From IMG/VR virus record IMGVR_UViG_3300025897_000009: a DNA stretch of 64,000 bases; one strand, written 5' to 3'. The stretch comes from a virus. Made by a program: the position numbers and the translations under genes. Below, piece after piece: positions 21,697-37,962 of the stretch; position 1 is the first letter of the stretch; every line of letters starts with the position of its first letter. Under the pieces are notes generated by a model. That model worked only from the letters and a program-made list of their open reading frames with translations, was not told the origin of the DNA and did not search any database.

Positions 21697-21720
21697 ATGC
21701 TCTCCGTTAGTTTGAAGTAT

Positions 21721-22428
21721 TTATATGATAGGATTCCCTGTAAGAGGGTCTATTTTGAACTCATATTCATTTGCAGGTACTATCGAAGGGGTCTCTTCAC
21801 CAATTTTCATTTTGTTTATTGCGTGCCAATCAACATTGAAAGATATAGAGTATCTTCTCTTGTCAGTGAAGTTTGGTTCTACCATGTGCATTGCACCTGA
21901 TGGGAATAGAATGAGCATACCTGTTTTGGGTCTTACACGAAAATCAGTTCGAGATCTATCATTATAGAAAGGCATATCGTTTACATATTTTGGATTTGAA
22001 TCTATGAATTGTATATCACCCTCATCTCCATCAGCATGTATGTAAAAAACTCCACTATACCAACAACCATTGTGTAAGTGAGGAGCATTCCATGCATGTT
22101 TATCATTTATGTTGCCCCAACTGTTTCCCATTCTCTGGATAAAGTTTCTCCCACCACCATAGTAAGGTATAACTTCTTCTTCAAATAGTCTATTGATTCT
22201 GTTAAACAGTTTTACAAATGTTGGATGACTATCTATACCATCATTAGATTGCCAACCAGTGTATTGGTTTGAAACTTTACGACCCACAGGATCTTTCTTA
22301 CGCATATCATCCATTGTTTCTTTTAACTCTAGCATGTAATCTGAATCTACACCTTGTCTAGGATGTAATTCTGGGTTGAGTAAATCCCTAAAGAACAATG
22401 GTGTAGGGAATAATAGTTTAACTGACAT
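21721..22428 (-). CDS. Putative 2OG-Fe(II) oxygenase (TIGR02466-like)
   Basis: LFPTP start, WGNIN, PHLH..YSGVFYI, LILFPS..HMVEPN..RYSISFN. Confidence 0.85.
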   Translation of the reverse strand: MSVKLLFPTPLFFRDLLNPELHPRQGVDSDYMLELKETMDDMRKKDPVGRKVSNQYTGWQSNDGIDSHPTFVKLFNRINRLFEEEVIPYYGGGRNFIQRMGNSWGNINDKHAWNAPHLHNGCWYSGVFYIHADGDEGDIQFIDSNPKYVNDMPFYNDRSRTDFRVRPKTGMLILFPSGAMHMVEPNFTDKRRYSISFNVDWHAINKMKIGEETPSIVPANEYEFKIDPLTGNPII

Positions 22429-23174
22429 TATTTAAAGTCCTTTTTTTGCCACATGTATTTTCTATATGAACCTGTTATACCATATTTAGATAACTTTCCA
22501 TCATGATCTTCTCGATGTCTCGAGTATTCTTCCATGTTAGGGTTCTTCCAATAGTCTGCGTAATCTACTCGAGTAGATGATGTCCAACTTTCCCTCTTAA
22601 AAGGAAACAACTGAACGATAGGAGTGCCTTCTGGTATTGTAAAAGTCTTTCGCACTTTAGGATACATAATCAACTGAGCATTAAGATCACCACCCTTAAA
22701 CTTGTCTGTATCTATAATGCCTTGCCATGCTGAAATGTATTCATTCGCGAACAAAAATGGATCTAAGTACAGAGTCGAGTACCCATCAGGAGTTCTTACT
22801 GAAAAAGGCATGTTCATTTTGATTGCATCATTTTGAACTCCAGGCATCATCGCAAACTGCCTAAAAGGATGAGACTGTGATTCCCAAACTTCATGATGAG
22901 GGCATTTCATTTCAAATGAAGTTTCTTTTTCCGCAATCTCGTCACCATAATATTGAACAATCATATCTCTAACTGCTACAACATAATACCCTGTCGTAAG
23001 TATATCTTGCATAGCAGGACAAGATCTAATAGTAGATCCTGTACCATGACCATCACCCATGTTTTCTACGATCTTAGTTTTTTTCCACCAATCAGGTTGA
23101 AAATCTTTAGCAGGTATTGCTTCAAAATCTTTCTTAACTCTTTCGTCAAATGTAACAAATTCTATATGTGGCAT
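22428..23174 (-). CDS. Conserved phage protein of unknown function, seen next to oxygenases
   Basis: PDWWKK, TIRSCPAMQDILTTGY, TPDGYS, GIIDTD, GTPIVQLFPFKRESW motifs. Confidence 0.6.
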   Translation of the reverse strand: MPHIEFVTFDERVKKDFEAIPAKDFQPDWWKKTKIVENMGDGHGTGSTIRSCPAMQDILTTGYYVVAVRDMIVQYYGDEIAEKETSFEMKCPHHEVWESQSHPFRQFAMMPGVQNDAIKMNMPFSVRTPDGYSTLYLDPFLFANEYISAWQGIIDTDKFKGGDLNAQLIMYPKVRKTFTIPEGTPIVQLFPFKRESWTSSTRVDYADYWKNPNMEEYSRHREDHDGKLSKYGITGSYRKYMWQKKDFK

Positions 23175-23175
23175 T

Positions 23176-23832
23176 TTATTCTTCTAGTATAAGTTCTGCT
23201 TCACTGCCTCTGACCACTAACGACTGTCTGTTATGATAAGTTGTACCAACAGGAGCATCAGCACTATGTGGTATTCTTCCATCAAACATTAACAGTCTAT
23301 TGGGTTTATAATCGATAGCATGTATCTGATGCTGTAACAAATTATCGTGGAACCCCACTTCTCGTTTTGCTTTTTCATCATATATACGCAGTTGACCACC
23401 CCATTCTTGTTGCCAATGCAGGTTGTTGTAATAAAGAAAGGAAATGTTTTGATCGTCTTTGTCTTGACAGTCTTCATGAACTGTACCTTGTAATCCTATG
23501 GTTTGCCCATTCATGCCTGCGTAATCAAATCTTTTCCAACTAAATCCAAATTCAGATTGCAATCTGTTGTCTATAGTTTTAGCAAACCAACCATAATCAT
23601 CGAGTGGATCATCTCTTGTGTAATCTTCTCTATAAAAAGTGATACCCCAAAATTTGTGTCGTATCTGCCCTGCTCTATCTACTTGGTTTGTTTGATTCCA
23701 TCTAGCACAATGTCTGACACATGAGTCAAACCAATAATGAATATCAGGGGATAACCAATTATCAAATACATGAATGTCAGTTAAAGGCAGACTTTGTATT
23801 TTAAATGGTTCATCGTGATAGATGACTTCCAT
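23176..23832 (-). CDS. 2OG-Fe(II) oxygenase
   Basis: HED (HxD), W..EWGG, YKPNRLLMFDGRIPH, terminal R. Confidence 0.85.
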   Translation of the reverse strand: MEVIYHDEPFKIQSLPLTDIHVFDNWLSPDIHYWFDSCVRHCARWNQTNQVDRAGQIRHKFWGITFYREDYTRDDPLDDYGWFAKTIDNRLQSEFGFSWKRFDYAGMNGQTIGLQGTVHEDCQDKDDQNISFLYYNNLHWQQEWGGQLRIYDEKAKREVGFHDNLLQHQIHAIDYKPNRLLMFDGRIPHSADAPVGTTYHNRQSLVVRGSEAELILEE

Positions 23833-24390
23833 TTATTTTTCCTCGTCGCTGGCAGTAAGGAATTCTGGCATCACAGGTCTGAGCGATGCCTTTTGGTAGT
23901 AATCAAAATCTTGTAATTGATCTTCAGGTGCAGCAATAATTTGATTTTTGAGTTCTTCAAAAATTAGGTATGCTTGATCATAAAACTCTAAGCATCTTCT
24001 AGCATCAGATCTAAATGGATGATTAGATCCTTCTCTACCTGCCACATTTGCTTCTACAATGTCACCAAACCTCAATCGATTACACATCTCTCTTACATTC
24101 TCTGCAGTAAAGTGCCACAAATCATCTGCATATTGTTGTTGTAAACTCACACCCTCTGGTGGTTCAGCATTCAACACATATTTTTCTATAGCATCAATCT
24201 CATCATTAGTCAGATCTGTGATTACTTCTTCGTCATCTTTCTTAATGATTTTAATTTTTTGATCATCATAGATAATGTAATCATACTCAAATCCTAGAGT
24301 GGGTGCATCTGTTTGTTCATACTCCCATCGGAGTCCTTTCTCATTTCTGAGTTTAAGGGAATTGTCTTGTTGGTAAATAAATGCGATCAT
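23833..24390 (-). CDS. Hypothetical protein (possible fibre assembly chaperone)
   Basis: Acidic 185-aa ORF with SD and CTAAATA promoter at 24423-24429; first gene after mirror-repeat protein 1. Confidence 0.5.
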   Translation of the reverse strand: MIAFIYQQDNSLKLRNEKGLRWEYEQTDAPTLGFEYDYIIYDDQKIKIIKKDDEEVITDLTNDEIDAIEKYVLNAEPPEGVSLQQQYADDLWHFTAENVREMCNRLRFGDIVEANVAGREGSNHPFRSDARRCLEFYDQAYLIFEELKNQIIAAPEDQLQDFDYYQKASLRPVMPEFLTASDEEK

Positions 24391-24454
24391 AATAAAGTTC
24401 TCCTGTACAGTCTATTGTACTATATTTAGTACAAATCGACTAGTGGATTTCAGA

Positions 24455-25696
24455 TTAAGTAATTGGCGTTGCTGGCCAATCAGTTGTACCATCCCATCTT
24501 TGAACTATCCTTTGTGCAGGATAAGGTTGTTGGAAAGGATATGGTGCTTGCACTATCGTTTGAGCAGGGTATGGCTGCTGGAAAGGATATGGTGTTTGAT
24601 AACCTTGTTGATACCCATATGGTTGTTGGAATGGATAAGGTGCATTGTAGTTCTGCTGGTATCCATAAGGTTGCTGGAATGGATAAGGTGCATTGTAGTT
24701 CTGCTGGTATCCATATGGTTGTTGGAATGGATATGGTGCATTGTAACCTTGTTGGAATCCATAAGGTTGCTGGAATGGATATGGTGCATTGTAACCTTGT
24801 TGGAATCCATATGGTTGTTGGAATGAATATGGAGCATTATAATTTTGCTGATACCCATAAGGTTGTTGGAATCCATATGGTTGCTGAAATGCTTGTTGAA
24901 AAGGATAAGGTTGTTGGAATGCATAAGGTTGCTGAAATGCTTGCTGAAAAGTATAAGGTTGCTGGTAAACATAATTCTGCTGAAAAGGTTGCTGGAATGG
25001 ATAAGGTTGCTGAACATTCCCCTTTGGTCCAGGTATTGGAGTTGTTCCAGTTGCTGGTGTAGTTGCAGGTCTTGCTCCAGGTGTGGGTCTCACACCAGTT
25101 GCTGGTGTAGTTGCAGGTCTCACACCATTAGCAGGTCTCACACCAGTTACAGATGAAGTTGCAGGTCTTACTCCATTAGCAGGTCTCACACCACTCGCTG
25201 GTCTTTGTGCTGGATAAGTACCACTAGCAGGTCTCACACCACTAGCAGGTCTTACTGCTGGGTATGTACCTGTAGCAGGTCTCACACCAGTCGCAGGTCT
25301 TACTGCTGGGTATGTACCTGTAGCAGGTCTTGGTCCAGAAGCAGGTCTTTGTGCTGGATAGGTTCCAGTTGCTGGTCTTGGTCCACTTGCAGGTCTCTGA
25401 GCAGGATAAGTTCCAGTTGCTGGTCTTGGTCCAGTAGCAGGTCTTTGTGCTGGAGTTTGACCTGTAGCAGGTCTAGTAGCAGTATAATTCTGTTGTGCTG
25501 GAGTTTGACCAGTCGCAGGTCTTGTAGAAGTATAATTCTGCTGAGCAGGGAATTGACCAGAAGATTTTATCCATCCATTTGGAGTTTTAGTATAAATTCC
25601 TTCGACAGCAGAAAACTCTGCTGGTCCTGTTTTTACCCATGCCCCACTAGTTGATGACCAACCTGTGGGAGTTTTTACCTGCGAACTCTTTGCCAT
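24455..25696 (-). CDS. Mirror-repeat protein 1 (RPAxG arm / PYxFQQ arm), putative long beta-hairpin virion appendage
   Basis: 48-aa Trp-containing head, 170-aa RPAxG arm, TPIPGPKGNVQQ turn, 170-aa PYxFQQ arm, 13-aa tail; CTAAATA promoter at 25706-25712. Confidence 0.85.
   Translation of the reverse strand: MAKSSQVKTPTGWSSTSGAWVKTGPAEFSAVEGIYTKTPNGWIKSSGQFPAQQNYTSTRPATGQTPAQQNYTATRPATGQTPAQRPATGPRPATGTYPAQRPASGPRPATGTYPAQRPASGPRPATGTYPAVRPATGVRPATGTYPAVRPASGVRPASGTYPAQRPASGVRPANGVRPATSSVTGVRPANGVRPATTPATGVRPTPGARPATTPATGTTPIPGPKGNVQQPYPFQQPFQQNYVYQQPYTFQQAFQQPYAFQQPYPFQQAFQQPYGFQQPYGYQQNYNAPYSFQQPYGFQQGYNAPYPFQQPYGFQQGYNAPYPFQQPYGYQQNYNAPYPFQQPYGYQQNYNAPYPFQQPYGYQQGYQTPYPFQQPYPAQTIVQAPYPFQQPYPAQRIVQRWDGTTDWPATPIT
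24497..25006 (-). repeat. Coding tandem repeat, 48-bp period (PYxFQQ-PYGxQQ-xYNA)
   Basis: Near-identical 48-nt units visible in the DNA. Confidence 0.9.
25043..25552 (-). repeat. Coding tandem repeat, 48-bp period (RPAxGx-RPAxGT-YPAx)
   Basis: Recurring gcaggtct units in the DNA; 16-aa period. Confidence 0.9.
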
Positions 25697-25735
25697 AATT
25701 GCCTATATTTAGTTTGGTTCTAAGAACCTATTTTA

Positions 25736-27634
25736 TTATGCGTAAACAATCCATACATCACCGACTGCACCATCTCCTGATGTAGGAGCAGCAGAGTGAA
25801 TAAATGTATTTCTTAAAGCACCATCAGAACTACCAATTGTAGTAAATGATGTAGTTGCTTTTCCAGTTAAGGTAGATGTTCCTGCGATTGTAACATTATT
25901 AGGTAAACCAATTGTTACAGTAGCATTTTCTGAACCAGAACCTGATATTTCAATCTCATTAGTTGTACCTGAGATACCACCAACATAATTACCTGTTGTA
26001 TCTGTACCTAATGCTACACTGTTAGCAGCAATAGTTGCCGCAATAGTAAGGTTTCCAGTTCCATCAAAAGAACCAGAACCTGTAACATCACCACTTAAAC
26101 CTATTGTTCTAGAAGTTTCTAAAGCAGTAGCAGTAGCAGCATTACCAGATGTATCCTGATTACCTGCAGTGTTAACTCCAGGCAAGTTGATATTAGCAGT
26201 ACCATCAAATGATACTCCACCAATAGTTCTTGCAGTTTCTAAAGCAGTTGCAGAGTCAGCATTACCTGTAACATCACCTGTTAATGCTCCTTCAAAAGTA
26301 GCAGCAACAAATGTTTCTGAACCAACTGACCATTTGTCATTTGTTTCGTCCCAAAGAAGTGTCTTAGAGGCAGAACCACCACGAGTCACACTGATACCAG
26401 TGTCTTCTGTTGGAGATCCTGAAGTAAAGTTACTATTTAATGCGATAATGTTATCAGCAAGTGAAATAGTTTCTGAGTTAACTGTTGTAGTTGTACCTGA
26501 AACTGTAAGATCACCTGTTACATTCAATGAATCATTAACTGTTACAACACCTGTACCATTTGCTGTTAGTGTTAAGTTGGTGTCTGTACTTCTTGATTCG
26601 ATTGCGTTAACATCGATTGAATTTGAAAATTCGATTGCATTTCCGTCAGATGAAGATATAGCATTTGATGCTTGTATCTGCATAGGTGCTTTAATTTGTA
26701 TATTACCTGTTCCAGTTGCATCTAATTCGATATCACCTGAACCTGAAGTTTGTACTGATACATTTTGGTCACTATCTGCAGAAACAGTAATTGTACCTGA
26801 ATTATCAGATACCACTTGTTGTCCGTTAACATATAAAGATCCTGGACCAACATAGATATCTCTCCATTGTTTTGTAGAAGAACCTAAGTCGTATGTAACA
26901 TCAGTATCAGGTATGATGCTTCCATCAAAATCTGATAGATGAGTTGTTACATCGCTGTCACCATATTGTGCAGCACCAGCAACTGTTAGGGAGTTTGCAG
27001 CATCATCATAAGTAAGAGTGATTCCTGTTCCTGCAGTTAAAAGTGCATTAACACGATCATCTACTCGTTCACTTGTATGATAAAGGTTTGTTGAACCTTC
27101 TGCCACATCATCAGTATCTTGTGCATCTACATATGCTTTGATAGATTCGGAAGATGCTAAAGTTGTTGCACTTGCACCTACCATAGTGTCTGAATCTAAT
27201 ATTGCTGATCCTGACACTCCTGTATTTAATACAGGACTTGTTAGTGTTTTGTTTGTTAAAGTTTGGGCAGTAGAAAGGTCTGTTACAACTGATGTATCAA
27301 TTTCGATATCATCTGCGTTGACTGTAATACCATTTCCTGCACCAACATTTACAGTTGGAGTACCTGAAGTTCCACCACCTGATAAACCATCTCCTGCTGT
27401 AACACCTTCGATGTCACCAGTGAGGTCTGCGTCAATTGTTAAGGAACCTGCGGAGTCGTCATATGTTGCTGTGATGTTAGTACCACCGACAACCATTGCT
27501 CCTACAATGTCTTGTGTTGCTTCTGTATTAGAAGAACCCAATGCTGCAGCAGTAATTTCACCACTGCTGTTTATTACTTCAGTTGTTCCTACATTAAGAC
27601 CATTCTTAACTACAAAGTTCTTTTGCGTTGCCAT
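25736..27634 (-). CDS. Tail fibre-like structural protein
   Basis: T/S/G/D-rich; QTLTNKTLTSP, YDLGSSTKQWRDIYV, GDLTVSGTTTTVNS, ATALETARTI repeats; C-terminal APTSGDGAVGDVWIVY. Confidence 0.8.
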   Translation of the reverse strand: MATQKNFVVKNGLNVGTTEVINSSGEITAAALGSSNTEATQDIVGAMVVGGTNITATYDDSAGSLTIDADLTGDIEGVTAGDGLSGGGTSGTPTVNVGAGNGITVNADDIEIDTSVVTDLSTAQTLTNKTLTSPVLNTGVSGSAILDSDTMVGASATTLASSESIKAYVDAQDTDDVAEGSTNLYHTSERVDDRVNALLTAGTGITLTYDDAANSLTVAGAAQYGDSDVTTHLSDFDGSIIPDTDVTYDLGSSTKQWRDIYVGPGSLYVNGQQVVSDNSGTITVSADSDQNVSVQTSGSGDIELDATGTGNIQIKAPMQIQASNAISSSDGNAIEFSNSIDVNAIESRSTDTNLTLTANGTGVVTVNDSLNVTGDLTVSGTTTTVNSETISLADNIIALNSNFTSGSPTEDTGISVTRGGSASKTLLWDETNDKWSVGSETFVAATFEGALTGDVTGNADSATALETARTIGGVSFDGTANINLPGVNTAGNQDTSGNAATATALETSRTIGLSGDVTGSGSFDGTGNLTIAATIAANSVALGTDTTGNYVGGISGTTNEIEISGSGSENATVTIGLPNNVTIAGTSTLTGKATTSFTTIGSSDGALRNTFIHSAAPTSGDGAVGDVWIVYA

Positions 27635-27864
27635 TAGTATGTACCCCCATTAATCGTCGCATTGTCGATTGTTTTAGCAGTACCACCAGAAAGGAATGTT
27701 CCTACTGCAGTGTCACTGTAGTAAGTATTTACTGAACCTTCTGAAAGGTTATCTGTTGTTAGTTCTGAAATAGCAGTTGCCTGTAGTTTCCCCGATGAGT
27801 TTATAATCTCCGTGGAACCTACAGTCAAACCTGCTAAGATAACTAAATTCTTTTGAGTTGCCAT
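27634..27864 (-). CDS. Small fibre-associated protein, paralog of the next gene's N-terminus
   Basis: MATQKNLV..GLTVGSTEIINSSG vs MATQKNFV..GLNVGTTEVINSSG; C-terminal NGGTY. Confidence 0.7.
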   Translation of the reverse strand: MATQKNLVILAGLTVGSTEIINSSGKLQATAISELTTDNLSEGSVNTYYSDTAVGTFLSGGTAKTIDNATINGGTY

Positions 27865-27963
27865 TTGTTTTCACTCTCCAACTAAATGCCATATTCTCTC
27901 ACGATAATATAGCGATTGCAATTTATTATTACAATCTATTTATTACTTTTGCTCCTTCAATGC

Positions 27964-28368
27964 TTATGCATCTACAAGAGATAAATCTACTTCAAAACTT
28001 GTTGAAGTAGTTGAAGTTGGTGTTGCTAACAATCGAACATTACCACCACTAATGTCAGCATCGAATGTTGCTAAACTAGATGATTGTATTTGTCCATATT
28101 GTGTCATGTCAACACTACTTCCATCATGCACTAAATGTAACTCTAATGCTTGATATTCAGAACCCTGCGTCATGGCAACGAGTATTTTGGCACTACGATA
28201 ATTCGTAGAAGAAAAAGATGCTATTGCAACTTCTGTAGTAGAAGTTGATGTGTGCGATGCTCTTTCTTTGCCTTTACTTGTTGTCCCTTTATCAGTTTCT
28301 ATTTGGTCCGACGAACTATTGTAAGATAAGTGTCGGATCAATATTGCTAAATCGTTTGCTTTTGACAT
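27964..28368 (-). CDS. Virion structural protein
   Basis: Shares the HDG...DADISGGNVRLL domain with 28379-29212. Confidence 0.7.
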   Translation of the reverse strand: MSKANDLAILIRHLSYNSSSDQIETDKGTTSKGKERASHTSTSTTEVAIASFSSTNYRSAKILVAMTQGSEYQALELHLVHDGSSVDMTQYGQIQSSSLATFDADISGGNVRLLATPTSTTSTSFEVDLSLVDA

Positions 28369-28378
28369 ATTATCCTCC

Positions 28379-29212
28379 TTATCCTACTCTTATTTGAAAT
28401 GTTTTAACTGTCGTGTTAGTGTTTGCTGGAGTAATCAATAATCTGATATTTCCTCCAGAGATGTCGGCATCTAAAGTCATAAGACTTGAAGATGTGAACA
28501 CTGTTGCATATTCTGACATATACACAGTTGTCCCATCATGTGTCACTAAAACTTCAGTAGCATGATATCCAGCACTTGCATGAGATCCTGAGATCACATA
28601 CTTGACTGTTCTATTAGAACTTGCAGATACTGAAGACAGTACCTGATCGGCAGTTGTTGCCGCAAAAGTTGATGAAGTATTATATCCAGCAACTAAGTCT
28701 AACTCTTCAAGTGCAACAACTTCAACAACATCACCACTGAGGGCACTTGAAGTCAAAGTTATGGTGGAAGCATCAGTTGTCGTATAGTCAACTGCTCCTC
28801 CCACTAACTTTACACCATTAAGATAAACTTGTTCTTCACCAGCAACATAAGATAACGAATTACCATTATCGTCATTGCCAGTTATAGAGGTGGTCGTACC
28901 TGATATCGAATAAGTATAGGTTGTCGCTGCATTACCTGTACCCAACTGATCAGTGAAACTTAATGCTCCACTTCCATCTGTTGTTAACACCTGAGTGCTA
29001 GCACCATCTGAAGTTGGGAATGAGAATGCAGAGTTGATAGAAAAAGTTGCAGGATTAGATCCAACTTCCACTACAGAAGCAGAACCATCATTCTTTTCTA
29101 GAAATACTCGACCATCATAAGTGTTGACAGCCAATTCACCTAATACAAGATCAGATGTAGCAGGAACACTTCCTGATGAAGAATTTCTTTTTAACTGTAT
29201 TACTGCAGCCAT
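28379..29212 (-). CDS. Fibre-like structural protein
   Basis: IQLKRN..VP..L.LGELAVN N-terminal module; VYLNGVKL..DY module; DADISGGNIRLL C-domain. Confidence 0.75.
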   Translation of the reverse strand: MAAVIQLKRNSSSGSVPATSDLVLGELAVNTYDGRVFLEKNDGSASVVEVGSNPATFSINSAFSFPTSDGASTQVLTTDGSGALSFTDQLGTGNAATTYTYSISGTTTSITGNDDNGNSLSYVAGEEQVYLNGVKLVGGAVDYTTTDASTITLTSSALSGDVVEVVALEELDLVAGYNTSSTFAATTADQVLSSVSASSNRTVKYVISGSHASAGYHATEVLVTHDGTTVYMSEYATVFTSSSLMTLDADISGGNIRLLITPANTNTTVKTFQIRVG

Positions 29213-29243
29213 TTTAATATCCTCTGATTACTTATTATGAATC

Positions 29244-30662
29244 TTAGTAAGATCCGCCATCAATTCCTGTGATAGAAACAGCACCAGATGTTACAGTAAA
29301 CTCAGAAGAGTTAAAAGAAGCAATACCTTTGTTAGAATCAGTAGCATCTTCTGCAGATAAAGTGATAGCACCATCTGCGTTTGTTACATCAAGACCTTCA
29401 CCTGCTGTTAAAGTAGCAAGTTCCATGTCGCCGTTTGATCCATTACCGATCATTAATTGACCAGCAGTTGGAGCAGCACCATCCAAGGATGTTATAGAAC
29501 CTGACAAAGCAAGTCCTGAAACTTCTAATCCACCAAATACTGCGTTCATCGCTGTACCTGTGAAGACTGAAGATGTATCTGTTGCATCATGCAATGCTAC
29601 AAACTTCTCATTAGATTCATCCATACCGAAGAAACCTACTTTAGCAGATCCATCGTTATATTTGAATTTAATACCTCTATCGAGGTTGTCGTCTGCAGAA
29701 TCGTCACCAATTTCAAACACTGGATCAGCGATTGAAACTGTTGTAGAGTCAACAGTTGTTGTTGTACCTGAAACAGTTAAGTTTCCAGTAACAGTAAGAC
29801 TGTCACCAATAACTACATCGTCAGGTAATGAAACTGTTACAGTCTGCCCTGAAGCAGATGTTACGATTTCGTTAGTAGTACCAGCAATTGTTAAAGACTG
29901 AGAGTCTAGATCAACAGCAAAAGTACCAGAATCACCAGCACCGTCTAAATCTTGTGCAGTGATATTTGTATCAACATAATCTTTAACAGCAGCAGATGTA
30001 GGTAAAGTTGTATCGTTATCGTTAGATGCGATTCCCTCTCCTTCTGTTACAAATACTGCGTCTGCGATTTTGTCAAGTGTGATTGCGTCATTAGCAATCG
30101 TTAAAGCACCATTAGATGCTAAAGTTGCATCACCAGAAATGCTAACATTGTCAAATGAATCACTTCCGTCATGAACAAGTACTTGTCCAGTTGAAGGTGT
30201 TGTGATATCTGAGTCTGTTGCACCTGCTAATGTAGATGTTGTGGAAACAAATGAAAGGTTTCCAGATCCGTCAGTGCTTAGGACTTGTCCACTAGTACCA
30301 TCGCCACTAGGTAAAACCCATGCGAGTGAACTTGTGATTGCGTCTGGTGCCTTAAACCCAACATAGTTAGTACCATTATCGGTATCTTCTCTAAGTTGTA
30401 AAGTTGCACCAGCAGTTGCGCCATTACCTACGATAAAATTCGAAGGTGTTGGAGCAGAACCATCTACGACGTCTGTGTAAAACTTACCACCGACCGCATG
30501 AACAGCAACTGATTCGTCGTTGTTTACCGATTCGATATATAGTTTCGCACTTGCTCCGTCGTTAGACTTATCCTGAGCATATGCCATTTCCCCTGCCGAT
30601 AAATTACTATCGATGGGGGCAGCACTACCTGTAGATCTTTTAATTTGTATAACTGTGGCCAT
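29244..30662 (-). CDS. Tail fibre-like structural protein
   Basis: IQIKRSTG N-module, LPSGDGTSGQVLSTDGSGNLSF, GNLTVSGTTTTVDS; C-terminal DGGSY. Confidence 0.78.
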   Translation of the reverse strand: MATVIQIKRSTGSAAPIDSNLSAGEMAYAQDKSNDGASAKLYIESVNNDESVAVHAVGGKFYTDVVDGSAPTPSNFIVGNGATAGATLQLREDTDNGTNYVGFKAPDAITSSLAWVLPSGDGTSGQVLSTDGSGNLSFVSTTSTLAGATDSDITTPSTGQVLVHDGSDSFDNVSISGDATLASNGALTIANDAITLDKIADAVFVTEGEGIASNDNDTTLPTSAAVKDYVDTNITAQDLDGAGDSGTFAVDLDSQSLTIAGTTNEIVTSASGQTVTVSLPDDVVIGDSLTVTGNLTVSGTTTTVDSTTVSIADPVFEIGDDSADDNLDRGIKFKYNDGSAKVGFFGMDESNEKFVALHDATDTSSVFTGTAMNAVFGGLEVSGLALSGSITSLDGAAPTAGQLMIGNGSNGDMELATLTAGEGLDVTNADGAITLSAEDATDSNKGIASFNSSEFTVTSGAVSITGIDGGSY

Positions 30663-30739
30663 TTGAAATTTCCTCTGTTAGTTAATTATTAAAAGTGTAA
30701 TATAATATAGTTGATTTATAATGTAATGATGACAGGGAA

Positions 30740-30976
30740 CTAAAAAGTACCACCATCTAAAATGGTAGTTGTCACCCACTTATCAGTAGCAGCATCGTAC
30801 GACAGCAAACCATCATCGCTTTCTGTCGCATTTACATCAGCAAGATCATTCAACTCAGAAGTCGAAACTCCTGCGTTAGATGAACCGATTGCTACTTGTT
30901 TTATTTTTGCCCCACCAGCAGAAGAAGAAACTCTTGCTCTTACTGATGGACCTGTGTTAACTCTAATTTTTGGCAT
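30740..30976 (-). CDS. Small fibre-associated protein
   Basis: LNDLADV..DGLLSYD..TDKW module; C-terminal DGGTF. Confidence 0.65.
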   Translation of the reverse strand: MPKIRVNTGPSVRARVSSSAGGAKIKQVAIGSSNAGVSTSELNDLADVNATESDDGLLSYDAATDKWVTTTILDGGTF

Positions 30977-31308
30977 TATACAGTGACTCCAGGTGTAACT
31001 ATAACTTGTCCTTCAACTATTCTGGTCTTATCCCCTCCAGATGCTGTGATGACACAGTCATAGACATATCTTCCATATTCCAATGCTGCAGTTTGTGTAT
31101 CAGTGAGTTCTAAAGTCAATTGTCCACTTGCTTCAGTCACTACCACATTAAATGTTGCTGCTGCAGAACTGCTACTATATGATTTTTTAACCTCTGCTGC
31201 TCCAGTGTATCCAGTTAAATCCATGACTGAACCATCACTGTTAGTTAAGTCAACAGTGAAACTAAAGTCGGATCCTTGATCCACATAAAGATTTGAGATT
31301 GATGCCAT
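30976..31308 (-). CDS. Ig-like fibre/baseplate adaptor (BppU-N-like)
   Basis: NLYVDQGSDF, DLTGYT, GRYVYD, RIVEGQVIVTPGVT; late promoter at 31328-31335. Confidence 0.7.
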   Translation of the reverse strand: MASISNLYVDQGSDFSFTVDLTNSDGSVMDLTGYTGAAEVKKSYSSSSAAATFNVVVTEASGQLTLELTDTQTAALEYGRYVYDCVITASGGDKTRIVEGQVIVTPGVTV

Positions 31309-31338
31309 ATTGTAGTTCCTTACAACTTATTTATACAA

Positions 31339-32133
31339 TTAGAGGTTGTATTGCTGTGCTCCAAATAACATAATTACAGGTGTTTTCGCAGTAGTTCGCG
31401 ACTCTTTCGAGACATTAAACTCTTGCACACCTTCATATTCTTTATTGTTTATATCTATGGTACCATCTAACAATAGTAGCACAGATTTTTCACCTTCAGG
31501 TCTAATATACACGAAATCTTCAGGTTCAAGTACATGTACATCATATTTCCAGAAGTCAAATGGGGTGGGTAAAGTTTGAGGATTGTAATTATTAGAGATA
31601 CAATTTATAGTTGAACCATCAACTAAAGAAGTTGTGGTCACATGATACATCTCTTCGGGATTTTCATTTCGAGAGTTTTCTATGTTAATCTTCGGTATGC
31701 GATCAACTTTGCTTACATTATGATCACCTCTCTTATCTATATGTCCTGGATTTTCTTTATCTAACTCATAATCTGAAGGATTGCCATCTTTGTCTATAGC
31801 AACGACTTCTATTTCACCTTTTGTATATATGTGTATCCTTTTATTGTGGACTAAGTTGCCATCATCCATCATCTTTAAAGATTTGTAAAAGATAGGATCC
31901 CACTCTTTGACTGTATCCCAAACTTCTTGCTCAGTTATGTCTGTCTTTTTTAAATGTTTGGCATAGATCTGTTTGATGTGTTTCCAAAGTTCTTCTCTGT
32001 CTACAGGATGAGTTGCTTCTAATGCATGATCAGTCGGAGCAGAGTATCTGGTAACATAACCTTTGTCTAAGATAGATCTTTCGACTGTAAAGGTTTCACC
32101 TTTATATGTTTTGCTAATTCTATTTGGTATCAT
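31339..32133 (-). CDS. Hypothetical protein with a C-terminal cupin-like segment
   Basis: C-terminal YDVHVLEP..SVLLLLDGTIDIN resembles the two upstream paralogs. Confidence 0.55.
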   Translation of the reverse strand: MIPNRISKTYKGETFTVERSILDKGYVTRYSAPTDHALEATHPVDREELWKHIKQIYAKHLKKTDITEQEVWDTVKEWDPIFYKSLKMMDDGNLVHNKRIHIYTKGEIEVVAIDKDGNPSDYELDKENPGHIDKRGDHNVSKVDRIPKINIENSRNENPEEMYHVTTTSLVDGSTINCISNNYNPQTLPTPFDFWKYDVHVLEPEDFVYIRPEGEKSVLLLLDGTIDINNKEYEGVQEFNVSKESRTTAKTPVIMLFGAQQYNL

Positions 32134-32710
32134 TATTGATTTCAGTTATAATAGCAACCATGACTTCATTCTTTGCTCGTATGGTAATGTCTTTACCAGA
32201 TGATGCTCTACAGTATTCAAACCCCTTAACATGGTTGTCATTAATTTGAGCACGTCCTTTTGCTATAAAGATATGTATATTTCCACCCATGTTGCCGATC
32301 TTGATGTATTCATCTTTTTGTAGAGTGGCATAATCGTACACAAGTTCCTTTTCTTGCATCTTATGCTTAGGATGAATGCAGTAAAGATGTCCTCCGTCTA
32401 TAAAGTGCATCCTAACTTCGGATGCATCAGTGTGGTTAGGATACCATGGTCTTCCTGGCATAGGATTTGGTTTGAGACCTGTATTAGCATAATGTATGTT
32501 ACACCAACCACTAGGAGCAACACCAAAACTATGAGAGTCTTTTCCAAAAAGGACATCATGCCTCTCAGTAAATATATGAATTGCGGAACTTGGTCGTTCA
32601 CCTTCTCTACCCTCCTCGAATCGATGAGTGTTTACTTGATAGAACTCATCTACTTTAGCATGGTTATCAAATACTAAGACATCGTCGTAGTTGTACCATT
32701 GCCATTTCAT
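32120..32710 (-). CDS. Hypothetical cupin-like protein (paralog of 32707-33324)
   Basis: GWCNIHY..PNP, DYATLQKDEYI..IFIAKGRAQIN. Confidence 0.6.
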   Translation of the reverse strand: MKWQWYNYDDVLVFDNHAKVDEFYQVNTHRFEEGREGERPSSAIHIFTERHDVLFGKDSHSFGVAPSGWCNIHYANTGLKPNPMPGRPWYPNHTDASEVRMHFIDGGHLYCIHPKHKMQEKELVYDYATLQKDEYIKIGNMGGNIHIFIAKGRAQINDNHVKGFEYCRASSGKDITIRAKNEVMVAIITEINNDTK

Positions 32711-33324
32711 AATTCAGATACCACACAAACCATGTTATCTGAAGATCTGCCTTGTATATCGTAATCTTTGTTTCCTGAAATAGTAATAAAGTTTATAGAA
32801 TCTATTACATCACTATCTTTATATCTTCCACGATTGAGTATCTTTACTTTTCCATGTAAAGCAAACACCCAAACTCGTTTGCCAGGATGTTTCAATCTGA
32901 TGTACTCACCTTTTTGTAATTGAGCAAAGTCCCATACGCATTCTACATCACGCATTGTTTTAGGGTTTGCCAATACGCAGAGTGACATCGCATCATCTTG
33001 GAACATCCACTTAATCGAAGTGCCTGTGTATCCTGGCCAAGAAGGAGTTCCTTGAAATGGATTAGGGTCTAATTGCCTAAAATAGTTTATGTTATTCCAC
33101 CCATGTGCATGCACACGACGTGTGACACCAGAACCATCTGCTGCTGGAGCATCCATCTCATTAACGATAGTGCCACCAATGACACATCTAAAGTTGCTAT
33201 GTCTTTGTTCTAGTTCTCTGCCTTTTTGGGGTAGATGAGTGTTGGGAGTATAGACTTCTCCTTTCTTGCCTTCAATAGAAAACATCCAGAAATCTTTAGC
33301 ATCCCAAAATCTATTTTTCGCCAT
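32707..33324 (-). CDS. Hypothetical cupin-like protein
   Basis: GWNNINY..PNP, DFAQLQKGEYI..VFALHGKVKILN. Confidence 0.6.
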   Translation of the reverse strand: MAKNRFWDAKDFWMFSIEGKKGEVYTPNTHLPQKGRELEQRHSNFRCVIGGTIVNEMDAPAADGSGVTRRVHAHGWNNINYFRQLDPNPFQGTPSWPGYTGTSIKWMFQDDAMSLCVLANPKTMRDVECVWDFAQLQKGEYIRLKHPGKRVWVFALHGKVKILNRGRYKDSDVIDSINFITISGNKDYDIQGRSSDNMVCVVSEL

Positions 33325-33886
33325 AATCTTCTATATCTCGTAGTGCTTCTTTCATACTTTGCACTTCTTTGTAGTTTGCTGAATGTTGAATAGTCAACTC
33401 AGGGATTTCTATGTTTACATCAGTATCTATAATCTCATGAATTTTTTGTATTACATAATCATGAGATAAAGAGTCCAGATCTGGATCTTCTAAGAGTCCT
33501 AGATTGAGTGTAGATATTCTACATCTCTTAGTCGAATTGTAAGTTAAGTTGCTTGCTAAATGGTTTAATGATGCTTTCTGTGCAGCATAAAGATAACCCT
33601 TTGAGATATTGGGTTCTGCTGCTCTAGATGAAATGTTAATAATTAGTTTCTTAGGGTCATGTCTCCATTCATTAAAGATAGCATGTAGCAATTCAGTTTG
33701 TCGGAAGCGAAGATGTGCTAAGTTTATAAAAACATCACAGTCTTTTGCTTTCGATATGACTTCATCCACATTCTCAATAGAAGTTCCTTTACTCGAAAAG
33801 GCAACTATCTTAATATAACTAAATTGTTCTAGATACTCTGCTAGTTTTTTGCCGAGTCCACTTTTACCTGTGATTGCTATCTTCAT
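33311..33886 (-). CDS. Short-chain dehydrogenase/reductase-like protein
   Basis: IAITGKSGLG Rossmann motif, FINLA, IINISS, YAAQK (YxxxK). Confidence 0.85.
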   Translation of the reverse strand: MKIAITGKSGLGKKLAEYLEQFSYIKIVAFSSKGTSIENVDEVISKAKDCDVFINLAHLRFRQTELLHAIFNEWRHDPKKLIINISSRAAEPNISKGYLYAAQKASLNHLASNLTYNSTKRCRISTLNLGLLEDPDLDSLSHDYVIQKIHEIIDTDVNIEIPELTIQHSANYKEVQSMKEALRDIEDYGEK

Positions 33887-34787
33887 ATTTGTTTATCAAG
33901 TCAAAACTTGGTTTGCCAAAGAGTGATCCGTCTACACTGCATTTGTTGCAAGGGGATTGACTTCTGTCTCCTTTTCTTAATTTGTTTCTTATTTTTTTCA
34001 TGGGTTTACTAAACCACACATCATGTAATGACGATTGTAAAAGATTTCCTACGACATGTTCTCTACCCCAATCATTTGAACAAAACAACACATCCCCATT
34101 CCAATCTACAAACATTTTATAGAAAGGATAGTGGCATGGTTTACCTTGTAGAGATTTGATGTCGGACTCTTCGATACCAACCCAATCGATCACACCACTT
34201 CTATTGTTGAGTATCAATCCATGTTTTTCAAAATCACCCCAATGCATCCGATACTTATATTTGTCTCTAGGAATCTCTGCCCAAAGAATTAACTCATCAA
34301 AATGTTCCATCTGTTCTGGACCATCATAAAGATTAATGTAAATTAAATCTAATCCGTTATTGTGAATAAGATCTACTAGATACTTATGATCTAACTTATC
34401 ACCATTAGTGTTACATTCTAATGTAGCATAAGGTAACTCTGTTCTGAAAATTTTAACGATATCTCTAAAATCTGGATTGAGTAAGTTCTCACCAAACCCA
34501 CTAAATGAAATTTTACCACTGTAATTATTTTCTGCTAACTCTTCTGCGATGATCTGTGCACCTTTGATTGTTAGATGTAAATTTCTATTTGGGAATACTT
34601 CTGGATCGTGACGAGGACAAAACACACATGTTCTATTACACAACTCTGTGGTATTAATCTCTATTGTAAGTATTGAAGATAAGGGTTTGTCAAGTTGATT
34701 GTGATGCTTTTCGAAGTGCTTTCGTTCTTGTTCTCTACGATGCTCTAAGAAACCATATTGATCAACTGCTGGTATCCTTTCTGTCAT
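33864..34787 (-). CDS. Radical SAM protein with SPASM/twitch domain
   Basis: CNRTCVFC (CxxxCxxC); C-terminal CHYPF..DWNGDVLFC..GN..CNKC. Confidence 0.92.
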   Translation of the reverse strand: MTERIPAVDQYGFLEHRREQERKHFEKHHNQLDKPLSSILTIEINTTELCNRTCVFCPRHDPEVFPNRNLHLTIKGAQIIAEELAENNYSGKISFSGFGENLLNPDFRDIVKIFRTELPYATLECNTNGDKLDHKYLVDLIHNNGLDLIYINLYDGPEQMEHFDELILWAEIPRDKYKYRMHWGDFEKHGLILNNRSGVIDWVGIEESDIKSLQGKPCHYPFYKMFVDWNGDVLFCSNDWGREHVVGNLLQSSLHDVWFSKPMKKIRNKLRKGDRSQSPCNKCSVDGSLFGKPSFDLINKYEDSNHR

Positions 34788-34941
34788 TATAAAATCCTCG
34801 TTCTATAATAGCAGTTTTGATTCTTGGTTCTTTAGGTTCAAAGAGTGCCATGGCACCACGAAGATCTTCTTCGTTATCAGATTCTGCTTTTAGAACATCA
34901 ATGTAAGTTTGACTATTAGTTAAAGATGTTGATTTTTCCAT
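34762..34941 (-). CDS. 59-aa ORF between mirror-repeat protein 2 and the radical SAM gene (below ORF-track cutoff)
   Basis: Manual translation MEKSTSLTNSQTYIDVLKAESDNEEDLRGAM...; TAATG coupling at 34941. Confidence 0.5.
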   Translation of the reverse strand: MEKSTSLTNSQTYIDVLKAESDNEEDLRGAMALFEPKEPRIKTAIIERGFYNDRKDTSS

Positions 34942-36320
34942 TATAAATTAAACTGTGGGGTTGGTACAGTCTGGTGTATTTTACTAATGTCGTTAGCAGG
35001 AGCAGTTGGATCATTCACATAGATCTCTTGTGCTTTCCTAATTGTACCACCCTGATTTATATATACTCCCTTTGCTTTCGCTATCGGACCTATAGGTCTA
35101 GTCGCAGAATATGGTTGTTGAGCAGGGTTTTGATATGTCTGCTGAAAATTATATGCTTGCTGATATGCTTGTTGTATTGGTCTCTGAGCACTATAGGTTT
35201 GTTGATACGCATATGGTTGCTGGAATGCATAAGGTTGTTGAAAACTATAAGGTTGCTGAAATGGATATGGTGTTTGATATGTATGCTGATAAGATTGTTG
35301 AAAAGCATAAGGTTGTTGAAATGGATATGTACCATTTGCAGGTCTTACCCCATTAGCAGGACGAGTAGCAGGTCTTTGTGCCTGTATAGGTCTAGTTGAT
35401 GCTGTCTGGAAAGTTGTATTAATCGTTGCTGCCTGAGCATTTAATGTGTTACTTGCATCATAGAATTCAGGACTTGGTTCACTGTCTCCTTGTTCAAAAG
35501 TTTCATCTTCCATACTCCAATTAACTTGGAAACCATATGGACCTGAAGTTCCTGCAGTAAATTGGTATGATCCTTCAGGAACTGCTGTTGCACCAGAGAT
35601 AAGGTATGTGTTTGCAATTGCTGGAGTTTGAGCAATCAAATCAAACTCACCATCTTGAGCATCTCCTGCGAAGTAACCTTGCGGACCCATTTGCCAATTA
35701 AGAGTGTCACCCTTATTTAATTGTGCTTGAATAGGTGTATTGCTTTGACCAAATGGAGATGCTAATGTTACAGTAGATCTCGGTAAACCTACATTTGCTT
35801 GTACAGCATAGGTGCTCACGAGAGCAGGGTTTGTTCTCTGATATGGTTGAGTAAAGGGTTGCTGAAACTGATAAGGTGCTTGCGCAGCACCTTTCGGTGT
35901 TTGATATGGTGCTGTACCTGACGCAGGTCTTACACTCGTTCTAGTTGAAGGTTGCTGAGCAGGTGTAGGTTGCTGAAAAGGTTGTTGAAAACTATAGTTC
36001 TGCTGAAAAGGTTGCTGGAATGCATAAGGTTGTTGAAATGGATATGTTCCATTTGCAGGTCTTGTTCCATTGGCTGGTCTTGTAGCAGGTGTTTGTGCTG
36101 GAGTTTGCCCTGTTGCAGGTCTGGTACCATTCGCAGGTCTTGTTGCTTGTAGAGGTACAGTTCCTGTTGCTGGTCTTGTAGCATCATATGCTTGTTGAGC
36201 AGGTCGATTTGCTGGTCTTTGTCCAGATGCAGGTCTGGTCGCAGGTTGTTGTATAGGTCTGAATGCCGTGTATGGCTGTTGGAAGTTACTCCCGATATTT
36301 ACATAGATATCATCTGCCAT
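34941..36320 (-). CDS. Mirror-repeat protein 2 with internal globular domain
   Basis: RPAxG and PYxFQQ units in constant antiparallel register (i+j=423), an inner PK-centred hairpin, and a ~140-aa non-repeat domain. Confidence 0.85.
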   Translation of the reverse strand: MADDIYVNIGSNFQQPYTAFRPIQQPATRPASGQRPANRPAQQAYDATRPATGTVPLQATRPANGTRPATGQTPAQTPATRPANGTRPANGTYPFQQPYAFQQPFQQNYSFQQPFQQPTPAQQPSTRTSVRPASGTAPYQTPKGAAQAPYQFQQPFTQPYQRTNPALVSTYAVQANVGLPRSTVTLASPFGQSNTPIQAQLNKGDTLNWQMGPQGYFAGDAQDGEFDLIAQTPAIANTYLISGATAVPEGSYQFTAGTSGPYGFQVNWSMEDETFEQGDSEPSPEFYDASNTLNAQAATINTTFQTASTRPIQAQRPATRPANGVRPANGTYPFQQPYAFQQSYQHTYQTPYPFQQPYSFQQPYAFQQPYAYQQTYSAQRPIQQAYQQAYNFQQTYQNPAQQPYSATRPIGPIAKAKGVYINQGGTIRKAQEIYVNDPTAPANDISKIHQTVPTPQFNL

Positions 36321-36330
36321 GATCTATCCT

Positions 36331-37962
36331 TTAGACCACGAACCAAAGATGTCCTGTGGAAGTTCCTGTTGCGTCAGTTGGTGCACTACTTGTAATCTCA
36401 TAATCTAATGCTATACTTAAATCGTATGGGTCAGAAGAAGAACCTGGAGTTGTGTCAGTTAAGTTGACATCAATACCTGCTCCTTCTACATATTTTAAAT
36501 ATTTATTTCCATCAACAGTGACTTGTGTTCCGTCACCATCGATAGCATACCATTCGTATGTATTATTTAGTGTTAAAGTTCCAGCAGAGTCATCATAAGT
36601 TTTTGATATGTTAGTTCCTGCTGTAATCAAATTAGCAACTCTGTCATCTACTCTTTCATCAGTATAGAACTTGTTAGTGCCTTCAGAAAAATCATCAGTG
36701 TCTAGTGTTCTAGTTCCACCGAGTGAAACAGATGTACCATTAATAGTAATAGCAGAATTTGCTAATGCTGAGTTTGGTAGATTTGATACACTTAGATCAA
36801 TCGCACCATCACCTGCGTCATCATATGATGCAGTGATGTTTGTATGAGTACCATTAGTGACTAGTTGGGCACCAACGATATCTTGTATGCTTTCTGTATC
36901 TGTAGTTGCTGAGTTTGTGATTGTCAATGAACCAGCAGAATCATCATAAGATAAACTGATGCCTGTTCCTGCTGTGAGTAAAGTATCAACTCTATCATCT
37001 ACTCTTTCGTCAGTGTAGAACTTATTTGTTCCTTCTGCTAGATCGTCAGTATCTAAAACAACTGCACCTGTTAAAGTATTAACACTGGTGACAGGTGAAG
37101 AACTGGCAGAGAAACTAATCACACCTGTAGATGAATCATAAGATAAATCACCAGATGCTGATATTGCATTTCTTGCTAATGTATTACTAAAATATTGATT
37201 GGTAGATCCTTCTGAGAGATCGTCTGTATCTAAACCAGATAAACTTGTTGGTGCACCTGTAAGTGTACCTACAAAAGCAGTTGATGTAATGCTAGAAAAT
37301 CCTGTTCCTACTCCACCTGTAATGCTTGCTGTTCCATCGGTAAGAGTTGGTGCCTCTAAAGAATGACCTGTGTCAAGTGTTAGATCACCATCAACGAAAG
37401 TATTACCTTCTAATTGAATTCTATAACCTGATTCTAATGTAGTAGTCGGAGTAGATCCGTCTCCATTAATAATTACACCTGTAGAGTTATTGTTATAAAT
37501 TGCACCTAATGCTGTGAGTTCCCAATCATCTGCAGACCCACCTGTTGAATCTTGTACATTCAGATAAGAACCTGTAAATGTACATATACGAATAATGTCA
37601 CTAAGACTTGCTGATGAAGTTAAAGTGATAGATGTAAACAATCCACCTGATGCTCCACCAACTGAATAGTCAACACCATTTCTAAGAATAAGTCCATTCT
37701 TAAATACTTGTGTTCTGTTTTGTCTGAAAGATAATGTTTCGCCAACACTATCGGCACCTGTAAAAGTCGTTTGACCTGCTGTAGCAGTAAACTCAAACTC
37801 TTTGAAAAAGAACGACAAATCTTGTATACTATTTACAGCATCTACAATAGATGTCTGATTGATAGTTCTAAGACCTGCAGTATCCCCTACACTTGTCGCG
37901 AGTTCGTTATATCTACTTCTCCATGTTTCAAAAGTATCTTGTTGATTAACTGTCTTTGCCAT
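36331..37962 (-). CDS. Tail fibre-like structural protein
   Basis: DTFETWR N-terminus, FTATAGQTTF module, repeated DTDD.EG.NKFYTDERVDDRV; C-terminal APTDATGTSTGHLWFVV. Confidence 0.8.
   Translation of the reverse strand: MAKTVNQQDTFETWRSRYNELATSVGDTAGLRTINQTSIVDAVNSIQDLSFFFKEFEFTATAGQTTFTGADSVGETLSFRQNRTQVFKNGLILRNGVDYSVGGASGGLFTSITLTSSASLSDIIRICTFTGSYLNVQDSTGGSADDWELTALGAIYNNNSTGVIINGDGSTPTTTLESGYRIQLEGNTFVDGDLTLDTGHSLEAPTLTDGTASITGGVGTGFSSITSTAFVGTLTGAPTSLSGLDTDDLSEGSTNQYFSNTLARNAISASGDLSYDSSTGVISFSASSSPVTSVNTLTGAVVLDTDDLAEGTNKFYTDERVDDRVDTLLTAGTGISLSYDDSAGSLTITNSATTDTESIQDIVGAQLVTNGTHTNITASYDDAGDGAIDLSVSNLPNSALANSAITINGTSVSLGGTRTLDTDDFSEGTNKFYTDERVDDRVANLITAGTNISKTYDDSAGTLTLNNTYEWYAIDGDGTQVTVDGNKYLKYVEGAGIDVNLTDTTPGSSSDPYDLSIALDYEITSSAPTDATGTSTGHLWFVV

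Follow-up and report, generated by a model that had tools for sequence, protein, structure and literature searches.

The DNA analysed here is a 64,000-nt stretch (the window) of IMG/VR virus record IMGVR_UViG_3300025897_000009, and the subject is the region at positions 21721-37962, in which two tail fibre genes (fibres A and B) are followed by genes for repeat-rich "mirror" proteins (repeat proteins 2 and 1, respectively) and by clusters of enzyme genes (cluster A, and cluster B or block B). By its gene content the window is from an uncultured marine T4-like phage of pelagimyophage-like type. Pfam matches identified the portal, major capsid, scaffold, sheath, terminase, gp15, gp14, gp8, gp25 and gp53 genes, and the nearest cultured relatives are Methylophilales phage Melnitz and Pelagibacter phages HTVC008M and Mosig, with 65-69% identity in the capsid protein and, by tblastn, 52-54% identity between gp13 and their annotated neck proteins. 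At the DNA level the 16-kb region had no match among cultured phages by megablast. Open reading frame (ORF) families were assigned using Pfam, PHROG and NCBIfam, Atlas scores were treated as leads only, and each neighbourhood scan covered the best 80 loci. Every gene of the region is on the minus strand, at the coordinates given in an earlier description made from the letters alone (the sequence-only reading). The order on the coding strand is VrlC, a 72-amino-acid (aa) ORF, fibre A, repeat protein 2, a 59-aa ORF, a radical S-adenosylmethionine (SAM) gene, a short-chain dehydrogenase/reductase (SDR)-like gene, two paralogous cupin-like genes, a 264-aa gene, six fibre-module genes, fibre B, repeat protein 1, h185, a 2-oxoglutarate (2OG) oxygenase, a 248-aa protein, a second oxygenase, an 80-aa protein and gp13 (Table 1).

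Table 1 Genes of the region and associated genes elsewhere in the window, in coding-strand order (L008, locus of a close relative; P4H, prolyl 4-hydroxylase; PHD, prolyl hydroxylase domain; GT8, glycosyltransferase family 8; AF2, AlphaFold2)
Feature	Position	Strand	Remarks
Giant VrlC-like virion protein, 2214 aa	38166..44810	-	Pfam DUF4815, E 1.6e-70; upstream border of host recognition cluster
Fibre A, 543 aa	36331..37962	-	phrog_697 structural protein, E 4e-18; 86% identical in L008
Repeat protein 2 (mirror protein 2), 459 aa	34941..36320	-	RPAxGx and PYxFQQ arms around a non-repeat middle
59-aa ORF	34762..34941	-	Overlaps both neighbours; kept only in L008 (79%)
BtrN-like radical SAM enzyme, 307 aa	33864..34787	-	Pfam Radical_SAM and SPASM, above thresholds
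Short SDR-like protein, 191 aa	33311..33886	-	adh_short 24.5 bits, below gathering score 26.6
Three genes: two cupin/pirin-lead paralogues (205, 196 aa) and a 264-aa protein	31339..33324	-	Only in contigs of this phage
Six fibre-module genes (LtfC-like, 110 aa; 78, 472, 277, 134, 76 aa)	27634..31308	-	Pfam LtfC; tblastn to relatives and Melnitz fibres
Fibre B, 632 aa	25736..27634	-	Homologous fibre genes precede repeat proteins in relatives
Repeat protein 1 (mirror protein 1), 413 aa	24455..25696	-	Fused form of the relatives' two-gene N-type and C-type system
h185, 185 aa	23833..24390	-	Kept in all relatives; Atlas leads to tail-fibre assembly families, 0.83-0.88
ox218, P4H/PHD-type 2OG-Fe(II) oxygenase, 218 aa	23176..23832	-	PF13640 34.4 bits vs 27-bit cut-off
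Putative dUTPase-fold ("CPA-motif") protein, 248 aa	22428..23174	-	phrog_7084; AF2 pLDDT 64
ox235, TIGR02466-family 2OG-Fe(II) oxygenase, 235 aa	21721..22428	-	PF13759 67.6 bits vs 27
80-aa protein	21454..21696	-	Hydrophobic N-terminal stretch; kept directly upstream of gp13 in all relatives; late-promoter motif 21718-21725
Neck protein gp13	20608..21423	-	tblastn 52-54% to cultured relatives; downstream border; late-promoter motif 21441-21448
GT8-like glycosyltransferase, 453 aa	6197..7558	-	Pfam Glyco_transf_8 23.0 bits vs 24.3 cut-off
Third 2OG-Fe(II) oxygenase, P4H-type family	5132..5833	-	PF13640 50.1 bits
IscU	2777..3187		Present

The sequence-only reading described one cassette layout occurring twice. 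The order of fibre gene, repeat-protein gene, small ORF and overlapping enzyme genes is real, and the coupling, which it called tight for cassette A, is tight in both, with overlaps of 1 to 26 nt at the gene junctions of cluster A and junctions ranging from a 1-nt overlap to a +1 nt gap in cluster B. Fibres A and B have repeat modules in common (34-38% identity, E 6e-17) and both match annotated Melnitz tail-fibre genes, while RPAxGx and PYxFQQ repeats are common to repeat proteins 1 and 2 (E 1e-20). The two enzyme clusters, however, have no homologous gene in common, and therefore the cassette as a whole is not repeated. Gene comparison solidly supports a duplicated unit restricted to the fibre and repeat-protein pair, which would consist of a trimeric-type fibre gene and then a repeat protein. 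The fibre-module genes stand between the two pairs, after a T4-type late promoter motif at 31328-31335.

Conservation of gene neighbourhood, which the sequence-only reading had proposed as a check, was found for block B and not for cluster A. Among relatives anchored on gp13, h185, an oxygenase, the 248-aa protein and an oxygenase were present in the same order and orientation in 39/39 distinct loci with enough upstream sequence; where at least 7.5 kb of upstream sequence was available, repeat proteins were found in 25/25 loci and a GT8-like gene of ~525 aa, 22-85 nt upstream of h185, in 24 of the 25. Scanning from the N-domain of the repeat proteins, with at least 8 kb downstream, gave block B in 65/65 loci, together with the GT8-like gene between the repeat proteins and h185 (62/65). 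The exception is the lineage of the phage studied here, in which the GT8-like gene, orthologous to that of a relative (L157:5228-6805; 41% identity, E 4e-81), is relocated to 6.2-7.6 kb of the window, separated from the third oxygenase gene only by uvsY, which overlaps both. The sequence-only reading had suggested that the P4H-like and glycosyltransferase genes at 5.1-7.6 kb could support the system, and the orthology with the gene found in the block in 62/65 relatives favours this; the IscU, P4H-like oxygenase and GT8-like genes that it named are all present, at 2.8-7.6 kb. Block B proteins are only 35-50% identical across the clade, so that the order of the block is of long standing, in an island whose genes are otherwise known to turn over. 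These comparisons make a solid case that block B is a fixed part of the late structural operon of the clade, always accompanied by repeat proteins.

The T4 late-promoter motif TATAAATA was found in 13 copies in the window against 4.3 expected, 11 of them on the coding strand and mostly 5-50 nt upstream of gene starts. Within the region the LtfC-like gene, the 80-aa gene and gp13 are the only genes that it precedes, and therefore the enzyme genes lie inside same-strand strings of late structural genes. The hydrophobic N-terminal stretch of the 80-aa protein was read by eye as a putative membrane helix.

Both oxygenases of block B score above their Pfam thresholds, as the sequence-only reading had them. 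In ox218 the residues H119, D121, H189, R202 and R208 are invariant in 19 sequences, giving the HxD...H triad and the basic residue for 2OG, and a profile of 19 homologues matched nearly exclusively protein prolyl hydroxylases in the PDB (P4H alpha, PHD2 and Tpa1). The second oxygenase, ox235, reaches 91.4 bits with TIGR02466 (cut-off 62.5), with H117, H119, H181 and R192 invariant. The GT8-like proteins of relatives score 21-22 bits with Glyco_transf_8, below the gathering score of 24.3; a DDD (DxD-type) motif is visible in the alignment of the window protein with its orthologue, and a search of the GT8-like protein against PDB sequences gave no match. For h185, no PDB or Pfam match was found, and a role as a fibre-assembly helper is possible on the strength of its Atlas leads.

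The 248-aa protein, which the sequence-only reading listed as a conserved CPA-motif protein, is present and conserved in relatives, and its identity can be revised. Its AF2 model (pLDDT 64) has dUTPases as all of its top Foldseek matches (E 1.4e-4) and, using VIA, only members of the dUTPase/dCTP deaminase superfamily at ranks 1-22 (Z 8.6, rmsd 3.8 over 123 residues), so that the protein is predicted to fold as a dUTPase/dCTP-deaminase-type barrel. It has invariant GIID.D and AQLI strings, which we take to resemble dUTPase motifs 3 and 4. A scan of 24 homologues with the dUTPase Pfam model gave an E value of 0.16 at best, in 2/24 members, and the PDB profile search one of 0.37, neither of which is significant. 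The protein may be a nucleotide enzyme or a trimeric structural helper. Its homologues in cultured viruses are found only in haloarchaeal myoviruses (26-29% identity; Halorubrum phage HF2 48119-49003, locus L173), where the gene occurs alone, beside ribonucleotide reductase and DNA methyltransferase genes.

The two repeat proteins are the sole ORFs of the window with >50% P+Q+Y over 100 aa (0.68 and 0.55, the next ORF reaching 0.25). No inverted DNA repeats were found inside the two genes, and therefore "mirror" does not denote a DNA palindrome. Repeat protein 2 has one homologue found outside this phage, in L008 (67% identity over the alignment), and comparison of the two showed that indels match between facing blocks of the arms, the facing-block lengths, which are approximate as the alignment was parsed by hand, being 72/72 vs 54/54, 26/22 vs 29/32 and 26/~0 vs 49/22. 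The matched indels fit antiparallel pairing of R-type with Q-type units, and a parallel register does not fit. RPAxGx units would thus face PYxFQQ units in antiparallel order, and the chain of the repeat protein, folded back, probably forms a stalk on the fibre.

In most relatives the counterpart of repeat protein 1 is two genes, and the fused single gene was seen only in the lineage of the window. In the N-type protein a conserved domain of 50 aa, containing two KTPxGW motifs, is followed by repeat arrays and a poly-Gly tail, and the C-type protein has arrays and an RWDG..WP end, which is also the end of repeat protein 1. No match to the N-domain was found in cultured phages by tblastn. The N-type gene comes first in 50 pairs and the C-type gene in 11 (for example L113:1430-3406, L157:1855-5138 and L104:2888-4472; about 60 other loci have split genes). 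The arrays of the two proteins vary about three-fold in length and do so together (r = 0.86, 61 distinct pairs). In 33 pairs the lengths are within 15 aa of each other, and most of the remainder are offset by ~140-190 aa; a few fit neither pattern. The offset can be attributed to an extra C-terminal domain on the N-type protein, seen directly in one locus (L139). Joining of the N- and C-type genes by stop-codon readthrough or frameshift was considered and is unlikely, as frames and gene order differ between loci. In these relatives the job of the folded-back protein would fall to two separate proteins, the repeat arrays of which are often nearly equal in length.

Some N-type proteins of relatives end in a Hint/intein-like domain (L142:3158-4459, L146:3937-5154, L114:2505-3908 and L150:3959-5158), which in L142 scores 45.1 bits with Intein_splicing against a cut-off of 35.8. 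In all four loci poly-Gly directly precedes the catalytic Cys and the domain has a terminal His-Asn; the residue that follows is I, M, G or F, and not a Cys, Ser or Thr nucleophile. Self-cleavage or transfer is therefore predicted and not splicing, and the Hint-bearing repeat proteins are predicted to undergo maturation at least in cis. The N-terminal Cys and terminal His-Asn are as in Type A bacterial intein-like (BIL) and Hedgehog-type Hint domains; the N-type proteins differ from these in the missing nucleophile, and the window's own repeat proteins have no Hint domain.

Cluster A has a different history. The sequence-only reading listed it as a radical SAM/SPASM gene, an SDR-like gene and three cupin-like genes, and each of these assignments holds in part. 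The radical SAM enzyme matches Pfam Radical_SAM and SPASM and carries the CX3CX2C motif expected of a peptide maturase, at residues 50/54/57. A full SPASM domain has about seven Cys for two auxiliary clusters, and the single-cluster type is called Twitch. The C-terminal domain here has only four Cys, at 218, 236, 280 and 283, and fits a Twitch/BtrN-like domain, as judged by its Cys pattern, and not a two-cluster SPASM peptide maturase. The sole PDB match was BtrN (4m7t; phmmer E 8.4e-18, query 30-284 against chain 19-256), and in NCBIfam the protein fell far below every equivalog cut-off, with no peptide-maturase model near its own. Homologues in Campylobacter phages are annotated BtrN, and a distant homologue in cyanophage S-SCSM2R lies between a sugar-type aminotransferase and an inosamine amidinotransferase gene. 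In the SDR-like protein TGxxxGxG and YxxxK are readable in the translation, while the adh_short score is below the gathering score, 191 aa is short for the family and no match was found among PDB sequences. Two of the cupin-like proteins (205 and 196 aa) are paralogues (28% identity, E 8e-21) with an Atlas lead to pirin/cupin (0.85-0.87) and without a Pfam, PHROG or NCBIfam match, and the third, of 264 aa, is linked to them only at E 0.017. The 59-aa ORF gave no family match in Pfam or NCBIfam.

More than 300 IMG/VR contigs encode the radical SAM protein at 75-98% identity, and in 77/80 loci the SDR-like gene follows its gene. In most of the 80 loci examined, RNase H is beside the pair. At L031:3113-12344 and some 50 further loci the pair comes after its usual upstream neighbours, RNase H, DUF6433 and two proteins of ~455 aa (acidic) and ~149 aa. 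The acidic protein was considered as a repeat protein resembling repeat protein 2 and was rejected. Just upstream of this RNase H-type context, L031 has a split carbamoyltransferase and a 2OG oxygenase. Searching the 80 loci by tblastn with all window proteins revealed no fibre, repeat-protein or neck gene within 10 kb of the pair outside this phage and L008; conversely, a radical SAM gene was found within 10 kb of 0/65 repeat-protein-anchored loci, and on one 151-kb contig the pair and gp13 are tens of kb apart (loci L031 and L142). Neither the 59-aa ORF nor the cupin-like genes travel with the pair; this phage and L008 are the only cases in which the 59-aa ORF and repeat protein 2 are found with the enzyme. 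The sequence-only reading had tied these enzymes to the mirror protein unless they occurred independently of it across relatives, which they do, in >300 contigs, and that tie is given up. Gene neighbourhoods instead argue solidly for cluster A as a separately mobile cassette with no evolutionary tie to repeat protein 2; the cassette would have landed beside repeat protein 2 in this phage and one close relative only.

By analogy with BtrN, the radical SAM 2-deoxy-scyllo-inosamine dehydrogenase of butirosin biosynthesis, the enzyme would most likely act as a dehydrogenase on a sugar- or cyclitol-type small molecule. The likeness comprises a full-length match, small size, CX3CX2C, four C-terminal Cys and a dehydrogenase-type partner gene that follows; the differences are that the present enzyme is phage-encoded, usually beside RNase H, and that its function is predicted by sequence only. 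Its earlier casting as a peptide modifier does not survive this resemblance to a small-molecule dehydrogenase, nor the want of a conserved adjacent precursor gene.

The position of the region, between a VrlC-like giant protein and neck genes, is that of the host recognition cluster of pelagimyophages and cyanomyophages, described as an island of variable content in which tail fibres occur together with GT8 glycosyltransferases and radical SAM cassettes (Zaragoza-Solas, Rodriguez-Valera, Lopez-Perez 2020, PMC7029224). The contents agree, with fibre genes and a radical SAM gene here and the GT8-like gene inside the cluster in relatives, and the nearest cultured phages are the same. The two accounts differ in that the passages of PMC7029224 used here describe the island as non-syntenic, its glycosyltransferases acting on host lipopolysaccharide (LPS); the passages searched mention no fixed block of GT8, h185, oxygenase, dUTPase-fold protein and oxygenase by gp13, no paired repeat proteins and no virion tailoring.

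Two further genes of the window were recorded. An acyl carrier protein gene (PP-binding, E 5e-13) at 19525-19743 overlaps both gp14 and gp15 by 1 nt and has a counterpart in the corresponding position in one group of relatives (58% identity, e.g. L157:11693-11884). At 57678-59228, a gene with a TnsA-like endonuclease N-domain (E 7e-21) is the sole plus-strand gene of the baseplate region, and with the adjacent minus-strand gene for a beta-lactamase-fold protein of 374 aa it looks like an inserted element.

The best explanation of these data combines a duplicated fibre and repeat-protein pair, tailoring of virion proteins by block B and a mobile cluster A, and we regard the chances of the whole being right as about even. 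Block B would mature fibre or repeat proteins during assembly, by hydroxylation of Pro (or Tyr), addition of sugar and help in folding. Its constant linkage, its position in the late operon and the P4H-type family of ox218 suggest tailoring by hydroxylation/glycosylation, a role that we propose tentatively and at somewhat less than even chances. The linkage is consistent with tailoring and is no proof of it, and we infer both the chemistry and the substrate. Doubtful, although worth stating, is a more specific proposal in which, throughout a clade of abundant ocean T4-like phages, the appendage is built of two complementary repeat chains (here one hairpin chain) zipped together unit by unit and finished by a late-gene set, which would comprise the prolyl-hydroxylase-type oxygenase, the second oxygenase, the GT8-like enzyme, the dUTPase-fold protein as a trimeric helper and, in some relatives, the Hint domain as a self-cleaving cap; such finishing would be an extensin-like pathway, new for phages. 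The sequence-only reading is in this way partly confirmed in what it observed and partly supported in how it interpreted it.

A precedent for hydroxylation of viral repeats may lie in chlorovirus PBCV-1, whose prolyl 4-hydroxylase reportedly acts on viral Pro-rich repeats in vitro (work of Eriksson et al. in 1999). Both viruses encode a P4H-type 2OG oxygenase and proline-rich tandem-repeat proteins; PBCV-1 is, however, a eukaryotic virus with (PAPK)n-type substrates, whereas RPAxGx/PYxFQQ repeats are the presumed substrate here. Mycobacteriophages have glycosyltransferase genes beside structural genes that decorate their own virion proteins (Freeman et al. 2023, Cell Host Microbe, as cited in PMC12801897). 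As described in the latter source, these systems differ in glycosylating the C-termini of capsid and tail-tube proteins, as established using mass spectrometry, and in having neither oxygenases nor repeat hairpin proteins, whereas the present case consists of genes only.

Several observations weigh against tailoring by block B and a folded-back stalk. All linked loci belong to one clade with a frozen gene order, so that 65/65 is effectively one evolutionary observation, and the clade has no cultured member, tailoring being a prediction from its genes. AF2 prediction of repeat protein 2 with its single homologue gave a pLDDT of 32 and no usable model. A single-sequence mirror statistic comparing Arg with Tyr/Phe profiles gave anticorrelations of -0.55 to -0.64 and was dropped as evidence; it was not above the direct-offset control in 2/4 proteins, and was slightly better for repeat protein 2 of the window. 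Assignment of ox218 to the prolyl hydroxylases depends on marginal E values (0.003-0.02), a chaperone role of h185 on an Atlas lead below 0.9, and a dUTPase fold is ill-suited to protein tailoring. An alternative is that no enzyme of the region has a virion protein as its target. The enzymes would then be auxiliary or host-directed, remodelling host surface glycans or hydroxylating metabolites, for example, as cargo in a tolerant cluster, with a position by gp13 that is simply inherited. PMC7029224, in the passages used, reads the GT8 genes of the cluster as modifiers of host LPS and O-chains and its radical SAM cassettes as add-ons. In HTVC008M four 2OG oxygenase genes and a ferrochelatase gene lie directly upstream of gp13 (56808-59681, locus L172), in the same slot and on the opposite strand, without repeat proteins, and therefore oxygenases collect in this slot without such substrates. 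No protein substrate is known for either the TIGR02466 family or the dUTPase fold, and the GT8-like gene could leave the block in the lineage of the window while the repeat protein was retained. Set against this are the order and orientation of the block, kept at 35-50% identity inside a hypervariable island, its place within a late same-strand string of structural genes, and the protein prolyl-hydroxylase type of ox218, whose constant neighbours are extremely Pro/Tyr-rich proteins. We consider host-directed enzymes a real but unlikely alternative.

Two other explanations are far less probable. Block B as a module for nucleotide or DNA modification, with a dUTPase-like enzyme, 2OG oxygenases and a glycosyltransferase acting as in the glucosylation of hydroxymethyl bases, would account for the predicted dUTPase/dCTP-deaminase fold, the strings resembling dUTPase motifs 3 and 4, and the genes adjoining the haloarchaeal homologue, and yet its oxygenases are of the P4H and TIGR02466 families and not TET/JBP, its genes lie in a late structural operon between fibre and neck genes, and the dUTPase Pfam match is not significant; we think it improbable. 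Little probability is likewise left for two parallel cassettes, in which repeat protein 2 would be the target of cross-linking or other editing by the radical SAM/SPASM enzyme, and repeat protein 1 that of hydroxylation by the 2OG oxygenases. The same order of overlapping genes does occur twice, and the 59-aa ORF immediately precedes the radical SAM gene, an arrangement also seen in loci for ribosomally synthesized and post-translationally modified peptides. The series from fibre A through repeat protein 2, the 59-aa ORF and radical SAM to SDR is also kept in L008, a close relative, so that the two cases count as one event. The radical SAM/SDR pair is nevertheless elsewhere in almost all of >300 contigs and missing from 65/65 repeat-protein loci, without the 59-aa ORF and cupin-like genes, and the enzyme is BtrN-like, with the Cys set of a single auxiliary cluster and no recognisable peptide-binding domain.

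Among marine T4-like phages, "orphan" 2OG oxygenases and glycosyltransferases are numerous and are usually dismissed as metabolic or host-directed. In well over 100 contigs of ocean phages, block B is locked to a Pro/Tyr/Gln-rich pair of fibre-side proteins, which provides a concrete candidate substrate for such enzymes. The region also illustrates that gene adjacency alone misleads in this island, as the radical SAM cassette beside repeat protein 2 is a mobile BtrN-like module. If tailoring by block B is correct, host recognition in pelagimyophage-like phages, the cultured relatives of which infect SAR11 and OM43, would rest on post-translational modifications that are hidden from genome annotation.

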